This document shows positions 8,015-22,319 of a DNA stretch of 24,281 bases, one piece after another (the first letter of the stretch is position 1; the number at the start of each line of letters is the position of its first letter). The notes beneath the pieces are model-generated. The model saw only the letters and a program-made list of their open reading frames with translations. It did not search any database and was not told where the DNA came from. Both the position numbers and the translations under genes were made by a program. Origin of the DNA: a virus (lineage: Duplodnaviria; Heunggongvirae; Uroviricota; Caudoviricetes); IMG/VR virus record IMGVR_UViG_2675903394_000002, positions 1 through 24,281 of that record; one strand, 5' to 3'.

Positions 8015-8899
8015 ATGAAATGCATCCGAAAACATCCAGCAATAGCTTATACAGTAATTATTTTAGTTTTTGCCTTAATATACAATTTCACTTGGAGCGT
8101 CAATCCAGATTCTTTCATTAAAAACAACGTTCTCAACTCTACACCTGTATATGATGCCGTTAATTTAGCATATGCGAACAATGAGGTAAAAAAAGAAGCT
8201 CCTGTCAGTGTTTCGAGGGAAGTATTTGCAGAGCAAATTTTAACACTTACAAATCAATTCAATAAGATAATAATTGAAAACTTAGAACTTGAAAAAACAT
8301 TATCTCAGCAGCAAGAAAAATTAAAACAAATTAGTGAAAGACAATCAATAAAGTGGGGCGAAAACACCAAAAAATACATAGCAGACAGTTTGAAAGATTT
8401 ACACAAAACGCTTATCACTAAAAATAGTGAACGTACTGCCATAGCATCTTTAAAAAACAAAACAAATGAAAGTCAGATTAACACTATGCTGGCCGACAAA
8501 GATGAAGAAATAGCCAAAATAAACCTTGAAATAGCGTATAAAGAGTATGATGCTAATGTCTATATCTTATCTCATGTCGGCGACTTTAACGATCCAATAA
8601 TCGTTAATGAGCTTGACGCAATCAATAAAGAAATTGAGAAAACAAGAACAAAAATAATAAACAACAAAAAGAAAATAATGGAGATAAGGAATAAATCTCA
8701 ATCTATGCTGGAGAAACTCAAAAAAGATGACCTTAACTTTTTGGATTTCTTATTTTATAGCATAGGAATATCTACAACGACCACCTTTGGTGATTTGTTA
8801 GCAAATTCAAGACTTATCAGACTGATAGTTTGCGTGCAACTTTTACTATCAATTATAGTTTTAGCTAACGTAACTCAAAGATTTTTATCAAAAAAATAA
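8015..8899 (+). CDS. Hypothetical membrane protein (294 aa): N-terminal TM helix, Lys/Glu/Asn-rich coiled-coil domain, C-terminal potassium-channel-like pore helix/filter/TM module
   Basis: Hydrophobic segment AIAYTVIILVFALIYNFTW at about aa 9-27; heptad-like K/E/N/I-rich middle; C-terminal NFLDFLFYSIGISTTTTFGDLL (nt 8726-8794) followed by TM helix LIRLIVCVQLLLSIIVLANV. Very AT-rich codon usage. Confidence 0.7.
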   Translation: MKCIRKHPAIAYTVIILVFALIYNFTWSVNPDSFIKNNVLNSTPVYDAVNLAYANNEVKKEAPVSVSREVFAEQILTLTNQFNKIIIENLELEKTLSQQQEKLKQISERQSIKWGENTKKYIADSLKDLHKTLITKNSERTAIASLKNKTNESQINTMLADKDEEIAKINLEIAYKEYDANVYILSHVGDFNDPIIVNELDAINKEIEKTRTKIINNKKKIMEIRNKSQSMLEKLKKDDLNFLDFLFYSIGISTTTTFGDLLANSRLIRLIVCVQLLLSIIVLANVTQRFLSKK

Positions 8900-8906
8900 A
8901 AAACAA

Positions 8907-8926
8907 AGCCCTCAAAAATGAGGGCT
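8907..8926 (-). terminator. Rho-independent terminator hairpin (agccctca-aaaa-tgagggct), strongest on the minus strand just downstream of Q; also positioned to terminate the plus-strand 8015-8899 gene
   Basis: Perfect 8-bp stem with 4-nt loop. On the minus strand it is followed by UUGUUUUUUAUUUUUUU; on the plus strand by AAUUUAAA. Confidence 0.6.
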
Positions 8927-8936
8927 AATTTAAACC

Positions 8937-9281
8937 TTAAGATAAGAACGATAAAATCCCGTCCAAAAATCCTAGTGCAGTTTGCAATTCCTTTCTAATC
9001 GTGCCATCTGAACACCTTCTCTTCTTGGCAATAGTGCGTAATGAGATACCAATAACAAAGTGGGCAATTAGTAGCTCATATTCTTCTGGCTTATATTTAC
9101 GCAACCTCGCCACACATCCATCAATCATAAGACCTTCATCATCATCACACTGCATCCGGGACTTTTTGCCATGAGGTAAAAGCCCCTTGAAGCCTGCTGC
9201 TATCGGCTGCCAATCCACACTACTGTTATCTGCTGCAGCCCATGCTCCCCAGCGGTCCAAAACTTCATACATGTCACGCAT
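8937..9281 (-). CDS. Q: Late-gene antitermination protein Q (DLP12 QuuD-like, about 114 aa)
   Basis: MRDMYEVLDRWGAWAAADNSSVDWQPIAAGFKGLLPHGKKSRMQCDDDEG... resembles DLP12 QuuD as I recall it. Ribosome-binding site GGAGAAAG upstream of the ATG at 9281. The ORF track extends to 9335. Confidence 0.8.
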   Translation of the reverse strand: MRDMYEVLDRWGAWAAADNSSVDWQPIAAGFKGLLPHGKKSRMQCDDDEGLMIDGCVARLRKYKPEEYELLIAHFVIGISLRTIAKKRRCSDGTIRKELQTALGFLDGILSFLS

Positions 9282-9365
9282 CAACTTTCTCCACAAAATC
9301 AGGCCAGCACGCCAATTACAAGCAAAAATCAACAAAACAGTATTAGTTGATTGTTATCTCTGACT

Positions 9366-15989: not shown

Positions 15990-16915
15990 AGCTCCACCCC
16001 GTAAATCCAGTCAGTGTTCGTCAGGTCGAGTTTTGGTTTGCCGGCTGTCACGCCAGCCTGTTGCTTGTTTCGGTTGATTTCGAGCTGGGTCCACTTGTCG
16101 CGGAGTTTGGCCGGACTTAGCACGTTACCGGACCAGAAGTTGTCCTGGCATGCCCAGCGGAACAGCACGCACATGTCGCGGTGGTTACGTCCGTCACGTT
16201 CACGCATCAGGCGGATATCGTTAGCCCACCCTGCAAAATTCGGTTTTCTGGCTGATGGCGCGATGGTCTTCACCATGTCAAACATCCACTCTGCGGCGGT
16301 CAGGTCTTCTGCTGTCCCCCACTTGCTGCCGCTCTGAATTGCAGCATCCGGTTTCACCACAGGAAGATCGTTTTCTGGTTGGTCAGAGGATTCGCCAGAA
16401 TTCTCGGACGAAAAAGGTTTTATATTGTCTTTTGTTAGTTTGTCTTTTGTGTTTACCTGATTCGGGTAAACGCCTTTACCTGATTTGGGTAAACTTTTTT
16501 TACCTGATTCAGGTAAATTTACCTCTTTCAGGTAAACTTTATTTTTCTTACCTGATTCGGGTAATGTTGACCATTCACTGACCACATTATTAATGCCGGT
16601 ATTCCGCCCGCTCTGAATAAAAATCCCACGCTTTACCAGAACACTTTTTGCAGCAGAACACTTGTGCGGCAATATCCCGGTTAATTCGGAAAGTTGCTCG
16701 TTGCTAACCCAATCCAGTTTTTTATTAAAGCCATATGTTTTGCGCATGACAGCCAGAAAGACCAGAAGCTGGTGCTGTGTTAATCCGGCCAGCATCACAG
16801 CTTCCAGCAACTCATTTGCAATGCGCGTATAACCATCATCGAGATCTGCCACGCGCGGCTCCTTTTGTGCCGCATCCGGCACTGGAAAATTGAATATCTC
16901 AGCAGTGTTTGCCAT
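15986..16915 (-). CDS. O: Replication initiator O (iteron-binding); about 310 aa from the start at 16915, with an alternative upstream start at 17005
   Basis: From MANTAEIFNFPVPDAAQKEPRVADLDDGYTRIANELLEA... onward it matches lambda O. Ribosome-binding site GGGAGGA upstream of 16915. The ORF-track ORF 15986-17005 carries a 30-codon in-frame extension whose ATG overlaps the stop of the upstream gene. Confidence 0.9.
   Translation of the reverse strand: MANTAEIFNFPVPDAAQKEPRVADLDDGYTRIANELLEAVMLAGLTQHQLLVFLAVMRKTYGFNKKLDWVSNEQLSELTGILPHKCSAAKSVLVKRGIFIQSGRNTGINNVVSEWSTLPESGKKNKVYLKEVNLPESGKKSLPKSGKGVYPNQVNTKDKLTKDNIKPFSSENSGESSDQPENDLPVVKPDAAIQSGSKWGTAEDLTAAEWMFDMVKTIAPSARKPNFAGWANDIRLMRERDGRNHRDMCVLFRWACQDNFWSGNVLSPAKLRDKWTQLEINRNKQQAGVTAGKPKLDLTNTDWIYGVEL
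16454..16567. repeat. Replication origin iterons inside the O gene: five copies of about 18 bp (TACCTGATTCGGGTAAAC and variants), flanked by an AT-rich region at about 16395-16450
   Basis: Direct repeats starting at 16454, 16477, 16501, 16520 and 16550. Each has palindromic ends (TACC ... GGTA), analogous to the lambda ori iterons. Confidence 0.75.
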
Positions 16916-17001: not shown

Positions 17002-17541
17002 TCATATCGCCCCCAGCATGGTAGTAACCATCGCCATCAATGGACCAGCCAGATCTGGGTCCACACGAAACATCGACACAATACCTTCACTAATTTCCTT
17101 CAGTTTCTGGTGGCGTGGTGCGTTGAGAATGACAGCCTGTTTTGCCTCACTGAGTTCCTTTTCCATTTCAGCCAACCTAGCCATGAAGCTATCCTGCTCA
17201 ACCAGGTAACCGCGATATTCCAGCGGTAGTACCGCCAGAATTGCCGGGGTCAGTTCACGCACGTTATTTCGGTATTTTTCAGAATCGAATTTGTTATCGA
17301 GGAAGCGGAACAGCTTCTGGCGTGCACGGCTGACATCATCAGGGAAATCGATGGTGCCGCCGCCCTGCTCCCGATACTCATTCACAATGAGTGTGGCAAC
17401 GACATCCTGATTATCTACAGCCGACCAGGCGCGGACGGCATCACGGATTTTTTCGTGGCCTGGCACCTGTTTTGTTTGAGAACGATTTATCACCGCAGTC
17501 GGGCTAAATCCGCTAGTCTGTTGGTATGTAAGTGGTTGCAT
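17002..17541 (-). CDS. CII-like/YdaT-family protein (179 aa)
   Basis: Motifs NEYREQGGGTIDF and VRELTPAILAVLPLEYRGYL resemble Rac YdaT as I recall it. It occupies the cII position between cro and O. Confidence 0.7.
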   Translation of the reverse strand: MQPLTYQQTSGFSPTAVINRSQTKQVPGHEKIRDAVRAWSAVDNQDVVATLIVNEYREQGGGTIDFPDDVSRARQKLFRFLDNKFDSEKYRNNVRELTPAILAVLPLEYRGYLVEQDSFMARLAEMEKELSEAKQAVILNAPRHQKLKEISEGIVSMFRVDPDLAGPLMAMVTTMLGAI

Positions 17542-17609
17542 AATTGCTCCTTTAGTTTGAATTGACTGTTAAGTTGATTGCTTATTGTTAAAGAGCGTGA
17601 AATGGAAAT

Positions 17610-17840
17610 TTAAGCTGCGTTCTTTTCGGTGTGTGGAAACAACTTCGGAAGATCCGGGCGAATCTGGTATGCCTTCACTACTCCACCAGTAGCCGTAACA
17701 ATGCTGCCGACATGTTCAGGGGATACCTTTGCTTTGTTGTGAAGCCACTTATAGACGGCCTGCTGTGAAACTTCGCAAGCAGCGCCCAGTTTCTTTTGTG
17801 AACCAACGATATTGATCGCTGTTTTGATAGCTGGGTTCAT
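17610..17840 (-). CDS. Cro-like (YdaS-family) HTH regulator (76 aa)
   Basis: Small HTH protein (…KKLGAACEVSQQAVYKWLH…) transcribed divergently from the repressor. Ribosome-binding site GGAGG five nt upstream of the ATG. Confidence 0.8.
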   Translation of the reverse strand: MNPAIKTAINIVGSQKKLGAACEVSQQAVYKWLHNKAKVSPEHVGSIVTATGGVVKAYQIRPDLPKLFPHTEKNAA

Positions 17841-17944
17841 AACAACCTCCGTGGTTAATTTGAATCAAGATTAAAACTATGGTTGTTTTTAGTCAACAAC
17901 CATTTTCGTTTGATGGAATAAAACCTTGGTTGTACATTTGGACT
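17841..17944. promoter_or_regulatory. Immunity-region operator/promoter region (oR, pR, pRM-like); 9-bp inverted repeat ATGGTTGTT-n7-AACAACCAT at 17879-17903 plus further AACAACC/GGTTGTT half-sites
   Basis: Divergent cro-like and cI-like genes flank 104 bp carrying repeated GTTGTT/AACAAC half-sites. Minus-strand TTGACT (-35 for cro) lies inside the palindrome. Plus-strand TTGATG-17 bp-TACATT ends 6 nt before the cI ATG, implying a leaderless cI mRNA. Confidence 0.5.
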
Positions 17945-18634
17945 ATGAAAACAACACTCTCAGAAAGACTTAAAGAAGCCAGATTAGCGCGAGGCCTTAC
18001 ACAAAAGGCGCTTGGGGATTTGGTCGGGGTTAGCCAGGCTGCTATTCAGAAAATCGAAACAGGGAAAGCTAATCAAACAACTAAAATCGTGGAGATCGCG
18101 AACGCTTTGGGTGTGCGCGCAGAATGGTTATCTTCTGGCGTTGGAAATATGTCAGACAGTACAGTGCAACCAATACAATCAACTGTCAGCCATTCCAAAT
18201 ACTTCAAGATTGACGTTCTTGATATAGAAGTCAGTGCTGGGCCGGGAGTCATCAACCGTGAGTTTGTAGAAGTTCTACGCTCGGTTGAGTACTCGTTTGA
18301 CGATGCTCGTCACATGTTCGATGGTAGGAAGGCGGAAAATATCCGCATCATTAACGTGCGTGGTGACAGCATGTCAGGAACGATCGAACCAGGTGATCTG
18401 CTGTTCGTTGATATCACAGTTAAATCTTTCGACGGTGATGGTATCTATGCGTTTCTGTACGACGACACAGCCCATGTAAAGCGCCTGCAAATGATGAAGG
18501 ATAAGCTGCTGGTCATCTCTGATAACAAAAGCTACTCACCGTGGGACCCGATCGAGAAAGACGAGATGAACCGGGTGTTCATCTTCGGTAAGGTTATTGG
18601 GAGCATGCCGCAGACATATAGGAAGCATGGGTAG
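17945..18634 (+). CDS. cI-like prophage repressor (HTH_XRE N-terminal domain plus S24/LexA-like autopeptidase C-terminal domain, about 229 aa)
   Basis: From MKTTLSERLKEARLARGLTQKALGDLVGVSQAAIQKIETGK... with C-terminal INVRGDSMSGTIEPGDLLFVD...AHVKRLQ (Ser/Lys dyad region). The ORF-track start at 17879 lies inside the operator; I chose 17945. Confidence 0.9.
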   Translation: MKTTLSERLKEARLARGLTQKALGDLVGVSQAAIQKIETGKANQTTKIVEIANALGVRAEWLSSGVGNMSDSTVQPIQSTVSHSKYFKIDVLDIEVSAGPGVINREFVEVLRSVEYSFDDARHMFDGRKAENIRIINVRGDSMSGTIEPGDLLFVDITVKSFDGDGIYAFLYDDTAHVKRLQMMKDKLLVISDNKSYSPWDPIEKDEMNRVFIFGKVIGSMPQTYRKHG

Positions 18635-18754
18635 TACCAATTAAAAATTATCAACTGGGCATTGTGCTCATTCAGTAAAGAACTAATTCCTATCTTTGCT
18701 CTAGGTAGTAATATTAAGCCACCGCAATAATATCTTTACCTAACGGCGTAAGAA

Positions 18755-18786
18755 TCCCGGTCACCGTGCCGGGTTTTCTTTTGCCC
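18755..18786 (+). terminator. Rho-independent terminator downstream of the repressor gene (cccgg-tcaccgtg-ccggg followed by TTTTCTTTT)
   Basis: GC-rich hairpin followed by a T-rich run on the plus strand. Confidence 0.5.
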
Positions 18787-18909
18787 TCCCCTCATCACAC
18801 ACACCGTTAAAAAAACCACCATAACCTCGCTTCAGTTATCGCTATGCGATTCAAGTCACAAAATAAATCCATCCTAAATACAACCAGTTATATCTAAAGC
18901 AATCAATAA

Positions 18910-18952
18910 AACAACTTTTGTTGTTGACGATAAAACAACTATAGTTTTAAAT
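18910..18952 (+). promoter_or_regulatory. Putative pL/oL: palindrome AACAAC-TTTT-GTTGTT (18910-18925) overlapping a -35-like TTGACG, with a -10-like TTAAAT about 17 bp downstream
   Basis: Shares the GTTGTT/AACAAC half-site with the oR region and sits upstream of the plus-strand early-left genes. Promoter hexamers are imperfect. Confidence 0.35.
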
Positions 18953-18956
18953 AAGT

Positions 18957-19008
18957 TCATCGCAACAACACAACGATACGGCAACTACCTGATTCACCGT
19001 TGCGATGA
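18957..19008 (+). repeat. 10-bp perfect inverted repeat (tcatcgcaac ... gttgcgatga) with a 32-nt spacer in the early-left leader
   Basis: Arms at 18957-18966 and 18999-19008 are exact reverse complements; they lie just downstream of the putative pL. Confidence 0.5.
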
Positions 19009-19229
19009 CCGCTTAGATCCGCAGTTTGAATTTCAGCAGGCTTCGGGGAGTGCGAGGGGTGAAACGGACGCGTGAACGTCGGTGTGACCAGCTGAAATTA
19101 ACTCAACATTTCATACCTTAGTCGCTTCAACGAGGCGGCTTAGTTATGACAACCGGCGGCCATCCACCGCCTGAATACGCGCAGAAGTCTCTATATGTTC
19201 AGCAGCCCAGCTTACGGGCAGGAGTTTTT

Positions 19230-19436
19230 ATGGTTCATCAACATTATGGAACGCAGACCGTTAATCGAGGTGCGGTCATGCCAGGAATGCTGGTCAAACA
19301 CAAAGATGGTACCTGGACTGCATCAGCTAATTTACGCGGACGGCTTTATCTGCATCGCGGCATCGAGCGCACTTATACCCGTGATTTGCTCGTGGAAGTT
19401 TTTCTCGACGGACGCGGTAACGGCCTGAATCACTAA
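19230..19436 (+). CDS. Hypothetical early-left protein in the kil/cIII position (68 aa from [14 protein letters not shown]...; the ORF could start at 19146)
   Basis: Strong ribosome-binding site AGGAG five nt before the ATG at 19230. Coding-like codon usage. No family recognised. Confidence 0.45.
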
Positions 19437-19511
19437 TCCCCTTTCCTGTTTTCCTAATCAGCCTGGCATTTCGCGGGCGATATTTTCACAGCCATTTTCA
19501 GGAGGTCAGCC

Positions 19512-19808
19512 ATGAACGCTTATTACATTCAGGATCGTCTTGAGGCTCAGAGCTGGGCGCGTCACTACCAGCAGATCGCCCGTGAAGAGAAAGAGGCAGA
19601 ACTGGCAGACGACATGGAAAAAGGCCTGCCCCAGCACCTGTTTGAATCGCTATGCATCGATCATTTGCAACGCCACGGGGCCAGCAAAAAAGCCATTACC
19701 CGTGCGTTTGATGACGATGTTGAGTTTCAGGAGCGCATGGCAGAACACATCCAGTACATGGTTGAAACCATTGCTCACCACCAGGTTGATATTGATTCAG
19801 AGGTATAA
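19512..19808 (+). CDS. gam: Gam, host RecBCD nuclease inhibitor (short GamS form, 98 aa)
   Basis: [60 protein letters not shown]... matches lambda Gam from its internal Met. Confidence 0.9.
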
Positions 19809-22276: not shown

Positions 22277-22298
22277 ACATGAAAAGCAAAATCATCAG

Positions 22299-22319
22299 GG
22301 AGCTACAGGCTCCTTTTTT
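22299..22319 (+). terminator. Short hairpin (ggagc-tacag-gctcc) followed by TTTTTT; weak terminator or attenuator inside the early-left operon
   Basis: Seen directly; the 5-bp stem is short, so confidence is low. Confidence 0.3.

Follow-up and report, generated by a model that had tools for sequence, protein, structure and literature searches.

An early-left leader lacking N, nut and put in a common Escherichia coli lambdoid prophage lineage

How does a lambdoid phage express its early-left operon when no N antiterminator gene lies between the repressor gene and that operon? Processive antitermination by lambda N at nut sites is the textbook mechanism, and the put RNA of phage HK022 is the known alternative. 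N proteins are typically about 90–130 amino acids (aa) long, carry an N-terminal arginine-rich motif and have their gene immediately after PL and nutL. A nut site combines boxA, of the CGCTCTT(T)A type, with boxB, a short G–C stem bearing a GNRA-like, purine-rich penta- or hexaloop. By contrast with this protein-based system, put is a two-stem RNA of about 70 nucleotides (nt) just downstream of PL, which causes terminator readthrough in cis and is blocked by mutations in the zinc-binding domain of rpoC. The window analysed here, a 24,281-nt stretch of a Caudoviricetes genome (IMG/VR record IMGVR_UViG_2675903394_000002), comes from a DLP12/Bievrevirus-like phage lineage and has a leader identical to that of phage PhiR34_1. 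A sequence-only reading had described positions 18635–19229 as a non-coding leader of about 0.6 kb without N, in a prophage that was either N-independent in its early-left transcription or had lost N. Here we describe the anatomy and distribution of this interval, which, taken as a whole, we explain with moderate confidence as the boundary at which the immunity region gives way to the early-left operon in a lambdoid lineage built without N.

The interval holds, in order, an empty cargo site, the cI terminator, OL/PL and a leader of about 270 nt that runs into kil–gam–bet–exo (features lie on the plus strand unless stated otherwise). Immediately upstream, a 229-aa cI-type repressor gene (17945–18634; phrog_4, E = 3e-72; phrog_6201, CI-like, E = 2e-46) encodes the repressor annotated as cI in PhiR34_1 and PhiR47_2. 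The first 120 nt after cI (18635–18755) are an empty cargo site and lie outside the leader; alignment with a relative resumes at about 18700, within this interval. Relatives carry defence-type cassettes at the same position: GevT/GevA in PhiR47_2, a HipA-family kinase with a DUF3037 protein in CFIAFB20180540, a SIR2 protein in O157 F6321 and two-gene cassettes in PhiR68_2 and 4A7. The terminator that had been noted after cI was recovered as an intrinsic terminator of the cI (PRM/PRE) transcript (18756–18783), with a stem of six pairs, five of them G–C (CCCGGTCACCGTGCCGGG, 18756–18773), followed by the T-run TTTTCTTTTG; it is kept in PhiR47_2.

The promoter-like element with operators was likewise found. 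Two 17-bp OL operators (18906–18948, not assigned to a strand) form a direct repeat (ATAAAACAACTTTTGTT at 18906–18922 and ATAAAACAACTATAGTT at 18930–18946) with inverted matches to OR (17871–17917), and are 95% complementary to the OR operator at 17871–17889. They overlap both hexamers of PL (18924–18959; −35 TTGACG at 18924–18929, a 17-nt spacer and −10 TTAAAT at 18947–18952), which faces away from the 3′ end of cI. The locus thus has the hallmark of a lambdoid OL/PL, repeated operators common to OR that overlap a sigma-70 promoter. Because TTAAAT lacks an A at position 2, PL was missed by a consensus promoter scan, and its assignment therefore rests on homology and on a register that, in alignment, equals TTGATA-17-TATTAT in PhiR68_2 and 4A7 and TTGACT-17-TATTGT in O157. 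Transcription from PL would start at about A18959, exactly where homology between immunity types begins. The transcribed leader (18959–19229) is accordingly about 270 nt, rather than the 0.6 kb given in the earlier reading, and with a conserved mini-ORF starting at 19146 it is not simply non-coding either.

The first early-left gene after PL is kil, not N. It encodes 68 aa (19230–19436; ATG start, Shine–Dalgarno (SD) sequence AGGAG at 19220–19224), matches phrog_294, ‘Kil protein for bacterial septation inhibition’, at profile positions 13–80 of 83 (E = 1.3e-37), and is 85% and 78% identical to the Kil proteins of HK225 and KO-TP1, respectively. A kil gene of 207 bp is also annotated by RefSeq in prophages, and the start at 19230 corrects the previous boundary of 19229/19231. 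The locus resembles lambda in its repressor gene, a cargo slot at the position of rexAB, the terminator, PL-overlapping operators common to OR, the leader and kil–gam–bet–exo. It differs from lambda in lacking nutL (boxA and boxB), the N gene and tL1, in having kil first after PL and in its empty cargo slot.

The absence of N was examined at the level of both protein and RNA. As the sequence-only reading had stated, 18635–19229 contains no ORF of N size: wholly internal ORFs reach at most 36 aa, and the sole longer frame, a 96-aa ORF from 19146 inside the leader, runs in frame into kil. Searches of the early region with Pfam and PHROGs found no N family in any leader frame, in a 128-aa read-through frame, in sORFs of 31 and 36 aa or in 18 other early ORFs. 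Within 18635–19229 there was no boxA match to GCTCTTTAACA with up to two mismatches and none to the pattern [CT]GCTCTT[TA], and enumeration of all leader hairpins with stems of at least 4 bp yielded none of the boxB type, so neither half of a nut site is present in the PL leader. With no N family, no boxA and no boxB, early-left transcription is therefore N-independent, the first of the two options raised previously.

The leader shows no resemblance to the put class. A covariance model built from eight put RNAs (HK022 putL and putR, HK639, UPF_BP1, phiEt88, CobraSix, S9-5 and PdC23) recovered HK022 putL at 95 bits, HK022 putR at 55 bits and HK639 putL at 94 bits, but with filters off it gave at most 5 bits (4.9) anywhere in 17300–19600 and had no hit inside the leader, so that the put hypothesis was rejected. 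True puts thus score 55–95 bits in a model in which the leader stays at or below 5, and the conserved put motifs GAACGGCGCG and GGCGGGTTCAGGATGAACGGCAATG are absent from the leader. What it shares with HK022 and HK639 is the layout of an N-less lambdoid phage with a conserved RNA segment directly after PL; HK639, CobraSix and S9-5 also bear, further downstream, the hairpin/mini-ORF element described below. Rfam produced no match at gathering thresholds in the whole window, and a permissive search of 17300–19600 gave only chance-level matches (E ≥ 0.8).

One short frame in the leader superficially supplies an N-like ORF: an arginine-rich sORF with a GTG start (19059–19121; MKRTRERRCDQLKLTQHFIP). 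Read as a miniature or remnant N, its product (MKRTRERRCDQ...) would bind a leader hairpin through its arginine-rich motif, and KRTRERR is indeed similar to the lambda N motif TRRRERR. A GGAG lies 9 nt 5′ of the GTG; among 93 distinct sequences, 79 start with GTG and 14 with ATG, and an A/G polymorphism at 19064 is synonymous. However, the peptide has only 20 aa (20–31 aa among its forms) against about 100 aa for known N proteins, and its polymorphisms show no coding constraint: they fall on codon positions 1, 2 and 3 at 7, 2 and 5 sites, without third-position bias, and replace arginines by cysteine (19071) or tryptophan (19065) in some variants. At the stop codon, 35 of the 93 distinct sequences (38%) have TAG and 58 (62%) have CAG, which turns the 20-aa peptide into a fusion with Kil. 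The sORF has no PHROG match, tblastn of the peptide found this phage group alone and no N protein, and the leader offers no boxB-like target; the A–U to G–U and C–G to U–G changes fit an RNA stem, 19064–70/19077–83, instead. On the polymorphism pattern, the variable stop and the lack of homologues we discarded the N-like reading; the sORF is probably not a gene, and the chance that it is a miniature or remnant N is very small. We also rejected the 128-aa frame that PhiR47_2 annotates as ‘Kil’ and that reads through from 19050 into kil: it is broken by the TAG/CAG polymorphism and by 1–2-nt indels, and the Kil profile spans only its last 77 residues.

The second option, that the prophage has lost N, finds no support in the distribution of the leader. 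It occurs in 16 deposited phage genomes, being identical in PhiR34_1 and of the same type in 15 others, including 4A7, Perceval and Turner, and it is present in 2,238 of 5,426 complete E. coli genomes (41%), with kil–gam–bet–exo intact. Its conservation begins exactly at +1 across three immunity types. PhiR34_1 is deposited as a complete phage genome with E. coli K-12 MG1655 in the host field; we found no paper describing it, and its viability is therefore inferred from the record. A defective derivative, in which nutL, N and tL1 were deleted and the lytic programme disabled, might be suspected from phi80, HK225, KO-TP1, ENT1 and HK639, in which the hairpin/mini-ORF element follows a block of genes (called N in phi80) and the intrinsic terminator tL1. 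Both the block and the terminator, which lie between PL and the element in those relatives, are missing in the window, and a boxA in the cro–cII interval could have been left over from an ancestral immunity module that depended on N. Against such a history stand the identical leader in a deposited complete phage, its recurrence in the further phages and in the E. coli genomes, and the intact cI, cro, cII, O, P, Q, terminase and integrase genes of the window, which make a defective origin very unlikely. From these sequence comparisons, the N-less leader appears to be a common design and not the outcome of defect or decay.

If the lineage was built without N, the question becomes whether it needs an antiterminator at all. 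RNA polymerase leaving PL would encounter none of the predicted strong intrinsic terminators on its way to kil, gam, bet and exo; the first on the sense strand lies beyond exo, at 22297–22315, in a prediction that covers terminators of the intrinsic, Rho-independent type. An antiterminator would therefore be unneeded for kil–gam–bet–exo, whose expression from PL most likely proceeds without one. The terminator at 22297–22315 separates exo from the DksA-like, xis and int genes, so that excision functions would require either readthrough from PL or another promoter. On the other arm, the absence of N had been expected to bear on the expression of Q and the late genes, but the predictions placed no strong intrinsic terminator between PR and Q on the sense strand. 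The PR transcript carries an rrn-type boxA, CGCTCTTTAACAA, in the cro–cII interval (17586–17598, minus strand); GCTCTTTAACA is matched exactly nowhere else in the window, and inspection by eye showed no stable hairpin after this boxA. This boxA hints at Nus-factor involvement on the PR arm. It is absent from the 30-nt cro–cII spacer of PhiR68_2 and therefore belongs to the immunity module, not to the phage group; since PhiR68_2-type immunity lacks it, we rejected it as a group-wide nutR.

The first part of the leader sits where putL or nutL would be, and an RNA acting there has to be considered. The 10-bp inverted repeat noted earlier (TCATCGCAAC/GTTGCGATGA, 18957–18966 and 18999–19008) was confirmed, and within the PL transcript it forms a 5′-terminal stem-loop (18959–19006) with an 8-bp stem (18959–66/18999–19006) and a 32-nt C-rich loop. 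The stem is preserved in 61 distinct variants, with A–U to G–U and C–G to U–G changes, whereas the loop varies, carrying an 8-nt insertion in L170 and being replaced in the O157 type; the fold has a z-score of only −1.4. A stem that begins at +1 would probably act as a 5′ stabiliser. The loop also contains a half-iteron, TACCTGATTCA, that matches five ori iterons in gene O, which we treated as chance because it is only a half-site in a variable loop. The central, G-rich segment (19007–19108) is confined to this E. coli phage group, with no homologue in genomes of other species. Its fold (19024–19104) has a z-score of −2.1, and the stems 19029–40/19088–99 and 19064–70/19077–83 are compatible with the observed polymorphisms. 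Homology of the 5′ leader to that of phi80 and HK225 looked plausible in a MAFFT alignment and was dismissed, as the local score was 18 against a shuffle mean of 17.3.

Could 18959–19108 be a new cis-acting antiterminator RNA, put-like in action but unrelated in sequence, that allows readthrough of, for example, 22297–22315 towards xis and int? The position directly after the PL start, the conservation from exactly +1 in phages with three immunity regions, the moderately stable central fold with stems that tolerate polymorphisms, and the strong terminator before xis/int would all suit such a role. Put-type antitermination has also been suggested for another N-less lambdoid phage, LLS, which the authors propose ‘may’ use put (PMC12315714); literature searches yielded this remark on LLS and no description of the present leader. 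However, the segment bears no likeness to the put model and occurs only once in the window, without a repeat in the PR operon. The entire 150 nt are no more stable than shuffled sequences (z = +0.5), the predicted hairpin 19041–45/19053–57 is disrupted in about half of the variants, and the sharp +1 boundary could also mark a recombination point where the immunity module ends. When GTDB genomes were scanned with Kil as the anchor, diverged copies of the 5′ segment were found at none of 26 loci (the 3′ element was found at three), and its known copies diverge too little for covariation to speak for an RNA fold. We consider an antiterminator RNA in this segment unlikely, and expression of kil–gam–bet–exo without antitermination remains our preferred reading.

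Downstream of this group-specific segment lies a widespread structured element (19109–19175) composed of the motif CATACC, a hairpin (A) and a mini-ORF. Extended hairpin A (19111–19149) has a stem at 19120–28/19132–40 with flanking CAUA/UAUG pairing, and its predicted fold occludes both the SD (GAGG, 19132–35) and the AUG (19146–48) of the mini-ORF. The region 19105–19180 folds at −25.4 kcal/mol (z = −4.4), and none of 200 shuffled sequences was as stable. Among 33 distinct sequences, six of the nine pairs are changed on both sides while 96% of cells remain paired; the covariation score is 0.462, compared with 0.175 in shuffles (reached in none of 500) and at most 0.083 when the pairing is slid. 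The mini-ORF begins with MTTGGHPPP... (19146–19175) and is in frame with kil here, so that a 96-aa form of Kil starting at 19146 is possible. Across 172 distinct contexts, the commonest peptides are MTTGGHPPPIETLNKCVEVLY (21 aa), MTTGGHPPPISAEVLY (16 aa) and the Kil-fused form. Codon 9 varies between CCT, CCC and CCA, and in 6 of 71 distinct variants the frame is shifted by 1–2 nt or the ATG is missing. A second hairpin (B; GGCGG-CCATCCA-CCGCC, 19155–19171) lies inside the mini-ORF; it is invariant, but it served as the search anchor, so its invariance is no measure of conservation. In HK639 a T-run follows hairpin B, which is annotated as a terminator, whereas the window has no T-run.

Comparison with relatives separates this element from the rest of the leader. 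CATACC, hairpin A and ATGACAACCGGCGGCCATCCACCG are common to phi80, HK225, KO-TP1 and the window; kil lies downstream of the element in HK225 and KO-TP1, and the phi80 record M11919 places the element within the ‘tL1 regulatory signal’. In these phages a leader of about 300 nt containing the boxA-like TGCTTTTTAACAA comes first, followed by between one and three genes and then, ahead of the element, by a strong intrinsic terminator; in the window, 150 nt of unrelated sequence stand in their place, and the 5′ ends share no significant similarity with those of phi80 and HK225. Translation start sites gated by structure occur in the PL operon of lambda, with alternative structures in cIII mRNA and an RNase III site in the N leader. 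The element resembles these in principle only, in that a stable stem-loop covers the start signals (SD and AUG) of a small ORF in the early-left operon; unlike cIII, the mini-ORF is unrelated, and there is no match to Lambda_thermo or any other Rfam family. By hiding the SD and AUG of the MTTGGHPPP... ORF, hairpin A would probably set its translation level, and that translation would in turn set the amount of a long form of the toxic Kil, the shielding of the leader from Rho, or both.

Alternatively, the leader could be mainly a Rho-dependent attenuator. Its untranslated, C-rich 5′ region would load Rho, and transcription would go on into kil and the recombination genes or stop according to translation of the mini-ORF, which hairpin A would control and the PPP codons might slow. 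The first 40 nt contain 14 C and 5 G and are rut-like, about 190 nt are untranslated ahead of the mini-ORF, the covarying hairpin covers the SD and AUG of the mini-ORF, and the PPP motif is conserved in most variants. Polyproline stalling and uORF-controlled access of Rho are established mechanisms. However, the G-rich stretch 19019–19078 is unfavourable to rut function. The GGHPPP frame is lost in those 6 of 71 variants, and the element of the relatives stands in another context, where a gene that is translated and an intrinsic terminator come before it. A leader that works mainly as a Rho attenuator is therefore unlikely, and the likelier reading is that of a leader in an N-less lineage that would deliver transcripts into kil–gam–bet–exo without antitermination.

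The covarying hairpin/mini-ORF element, which has no match in Rfam release 15, precedes a toxic division inhibitor and Red-type recombination genes, and could account for the restraint of kil. There is some chance, although a low one, that the leader carries a novel regulatory RNA, either as a put-unrelated antiterminator or anti-Rho RNA in the 150 nt from +1 that replaces N, or as a hairpin/mini-ORF element that acts as a translational or transcriptional switch for kil and the recombination genes. About 41% of complete E. coli genomes carry this leader type, which has neither N/nut nor put. If antitermination is needed in these prophages, an unknown mechanism would have to reside within 150 nt of RNA; if no early antitermination is needed, the lambda paradigm would be less general among natural lambdoid prophages than is usually assumed.

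The window is a DLP12/Bievrevirus-like lambdoid prophage or phage that shares 99.9% identity with Escherichia phage PhiR34_1 across 17500-19600, the two being identical over 18900-19240. The minus strand carries cro (17610-17840), a cII-like gene (17002-17541), beyond it O, P, ren and several cargo genes, and a Q-like antiterminator gene (8937-9335). On the plus strand lie cI (17945-18634), kil (19230-19436) and gam (19512-19808), followed in order by bet, exo and genes for a methyltransferase, a DksA-like protein, an excisionase and an integrase, the last of which ends with the window. The PhiR34_1 record (locus L001, 19697-19930) leaves kil unannotated and annotates as a hypothetical protein a 77-aa ORF overlapping it in the +1 frame (MFSSPAYGQ...; window 19195-19428, plus strand), which is probably a mis-annotation.

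The sequence-only reading had described about 0.6 kb of non-coding leader (18635-19229) with no ORF of plausible size, and ORFs wholly inside this interval indeed reach at most 36 aa. The terminator that it placed after cI corresponds to a terminator-like hairpin at 18756-18773 (5/6 pairs G-C) followed by a T-run. Its promoter-like element was also borne out: the PL hexamers, TTGACG and TTAAAT with a 17-nt spacer, are overlapped by two 17-bp operator copies (18906-18922 and 18930-18946) that repeat each other directly and match the OR operators (17871-17917) in inverted orientation, with complementarity of up to 95%. PL was missing from a consensus promoter scan because TTAAAT has no A at position 2; the same exact register recurs in phages of two other immunity specificities (TTGATA-17-TATTAT and TTGACT-17-TATTGT). 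The 10-bp inverted repeat is exact, at 18957-66/18999-19008. The length of the leader needed revision: 18635-18755 precedes the terminator and falls outside the leader, and the transcribed part is only about 270 nt (18959-19229), with kil beginning at 19230, which corrects an earlier boundary. Between cI and the terminator (18635-18755), where rexAB would sit, is a hotspot for cargo, empty in the window and occupied in relatives by GevT/GevA, a HipA-family kinase with a DUF3037 protein, a SIR2 protein or other two-gene cassettes (relatives' loci L002 4205-5633, L008 689-2262, L009 549-2150, L006 844-2299 and L007 879-2295).

The early-left leader region is without N, nut and put, as no N family, boxA/boxB, put-model or Rfam match was found. 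In phage PhiR47_2 the longest leader-spanning frame stays open for 128 aa and is annotated 'Kil'; it has no match in Pfam, and its PHROGs match is to the Kil family alone, over the last 77 residues only. N-type family matches were likewise absent for the remaining small ORFs of the leader and for 18 more early ORFs. The leader contains no boxA and, with all short hairpins enumerated, no boxB-type hairpin. The N-profile and boxA/boxB checks proposed with the sequence-only reading both came back negative. A put covariance model, built from HK022 putL and putR, HK639 and the put-like sites of UPF_BP1, phiEt88, CobraSix, S9-5 and PdC23, recovers true puts at 55-95 bits; run over 17300-19600 with filters off, it gave at most 4.9 bits anywhere and no hit in the leader. 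Rfam gave no match, and no leader segment has a second copy within the window.

One candidate for an N-like gene was weighed separately. A GTG at 19059, in frame with kil, opens MKRTRERRCDQLKLTQHFIP, which resembles the N arginine-rich motif. Its variation was followed in 93 distinct IMG/VR sequences collected with an 18-mer anchor and in 117 collected with the kil start as anchor. Polymorphic sites are distributed 7/2/5 over codon positions 1/2/3, two arginines are replaced in variants (R to C at 19071, R to W at 19065), and the stop codon is TAG in 35/93 and CAG in 58/93 distinct sequences, an alternation that yields either a 20-aa product or a Kil fusion. Homologues of the peptide were found by tblastn in this phage group only, and several of the polymorphisms leave an RNA stem at 19064-70/19077-83 intact. 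The short ORF is therefore probably not a gene, with some residual doubt from its start codon, which is polymorphic between GTG and ATG.

A simple scan found no strong sense-strand intrinsic terminator between PL and exo, or between PR and Q. The first on the PL transcript, at 22297-22315 (plus strand; AGGGAGCTACAGGCTCCTT then TTTTATTGTT), separates the exo-side genes from the DksA-like, excisionase (xis) and integrase (int) genes; PL transcripts would have to pass it without N to reach xis and int. Another strong terminator (8907-8926, minus strand; AGCCCTCATTTTTGAGGGCT then TTGTTTTTTA) lies directly 3' of the Q-like gene and adjoins an oppositely oriented OmpD/NmpC-type porin gene (8015-8899). 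On the PR transcript, a consensus, perfect rrn-type boxA, CGCTCTTTAACAA, lies between cro and cII (17586-17598, minus strand), 12 nt past the cro stop, with no boxB-like hairpin after it by eye. It is specific to the immunity module of the window, because PhiR68_2 (L019), of the same phage group but a different immunity type, has a 30-nt cro-cII spacer without boxA. This boxA could recruit NusB/NusE without N.

The alternative that the prophage has lost N, possibly compromising Q expression, had also been raised. Sixteen deposited phage genomes carry the leader, as do 2238/5426 complete E. coli genomes. Among phages and prophages that differ in cI, cro and operators, the shared sequence starts exactly at 18959, the inferred transcription start, upstream of which those of different immunity are unrelated in sequence. 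Gene order was the same in all relatives examined: cI, variable cargo, terminator, OL/PL, leader, kil, gam, bet, exo. Together these observations leave the lost-N alternative unsupported; the N-less leader is not a defect.

The two parts of the leader differ in distribution. The 5' part (18959-19108) was found in this E. coli phage group only; a scan anchored on Kil and covering one genome per species turned up 26 loci, all of them lacking the 5' part. The kil gene on two contigs, L021 ('Bacillota' MAG) and L030 ('Atopobium' MAG), is 85-100% identical to the enterobacterial gene; both are probably mis-binned enterobacterial phage contigs. Homology of the 5' part to the phi80-type leader was considered and rejected, the apparent similarity being no better than chance. 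The first 40 nt are C-rich, and Rho might act on them. A stem starting at +1 is conserved despite variation in its loop, which fits a putative 5'-terminal stabilising hairpin. The whole 150-nt 5' part has a predicted fold no better than shuffles, and it has diverged too little for covariation to be tested. Gene O contains five ori iterons, TTTACCTGATTCGGGTAAA (16450-16570), and a half-iteron 11-mer, TACCTGATTCA, occurs in the loop of the leader's 5' hairpin (18986-18996), probably by chance.

The 3' part matches more widely. Positions 19109-19171 match phi80 DNA just past the 'N' gene and its terminator (in record M11919, inside the 'tL1 regulatory signal'), DNA past other small genes and a terminator in HK225, KO-TP1, ENT1 and one E. 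coli prophage, and likewise in the put-using phages HK639, S9-5 and CobraSix. The element reads CATACC, hairpin A (19120-28/19132-40, plus strand), TTAGTT and then ATG ACA ACC GGC GGC CAT CCA CCG CC, a stretch enclosing hairpin B (19155-59/19167-71, plus strand). Among 33 distinct sequences, both sides of hairpin A have changed in 6/9 pairs, with pairing in 96% of cells; it scores 0.462 for covariation, compared with 0.175 in shuffles (0/500 as high) and at most 0.083 with the partners slid. Its G-U pairs fall on the plus strand, and the folded molecule is therefore plus-strand RNA. The predicted fold of 19105-19180 (-25.4 kcal/mol, z -4.4) lengthens hairpin A through CAUA/UAUG pairing, so that the Shine-Dalgarno sequence (GAGG) and AUG of the mini-ORF would both be occluded; GAGG is nearly invariant despite its position inside a covarying stem. 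Hairpin B is invariant, but it served as the search anchor, so this is no proof of conservation. In HK639 (L300 1369-1397), hairpin B runs into AGCATATTTTT, and the annotation lists it as a second terminator; the T-run is absent in the window (19155-19171) and most relatives.

The mini-ORF peptide begins MTTGGHPPP and continues in relatives as ...IETLNKCVEVLY or ...ISAEVLY. Synonymous variation at codon 9, and two short classes that differ by an in-frame 15 nt, argue for its translation. The frame is shifted or the ATG missing in 6/71 distinct variants, so the exact peptide may be dispensable. In this phage group the mini-ORF is mostly in frame with kil (19146-19436), and a 96-aa, N-terminally extended Kil could arise from the occluded AUG besides the 68-aa form; about 10/60 distinct contexts break the fusion.

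The region is thus a lambdoid OL/PL early-left junction of known kind, in a variant with neither of the two known early antitermination devices. HK022 and HK639 are also N-less lambdoids, but use put, and the authors describing LLS, another N-less lambdoid, suggest that it may do so too (PMC12315714). Phages phi80 (L004 1775-2000), HK225 (L005 1240-1450) and Klebsiella phage KO-TP1 (L016 845-1060) have in common a roughly 300-nt PL leader that contains a boxA-like TGCTTTTTAACAA. Different genes come after it, phi80 'N' versus unrelated small proteins, and the same junction, CCGCATCAGCGGGTAAC-ACAGAGGGTAAGG, precedes each; phi80 'N' has no N-terminal arginine-rich motif. No description of our leader or its hairpin/mini-ORF element was found in the searchable literature or in Rfam.

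This lineage is without the gene block and terminator that precede the element in other carriers. We propose that PL transcription therefore reaches kil-gam-bet-exo unhindered by any predicted strong intrinsic terminator, and that an antiterminator would be unnecessary for these genes. The leader would then probably serve mRNA stability and gated translation ahead of a toxic gene. The N-less lambdoid early-left layout is a very common phage design, about which the present analysis offers a sound negative observation, together with one unexplained conserved 5' segment and one well-supported conserved RNA structure.
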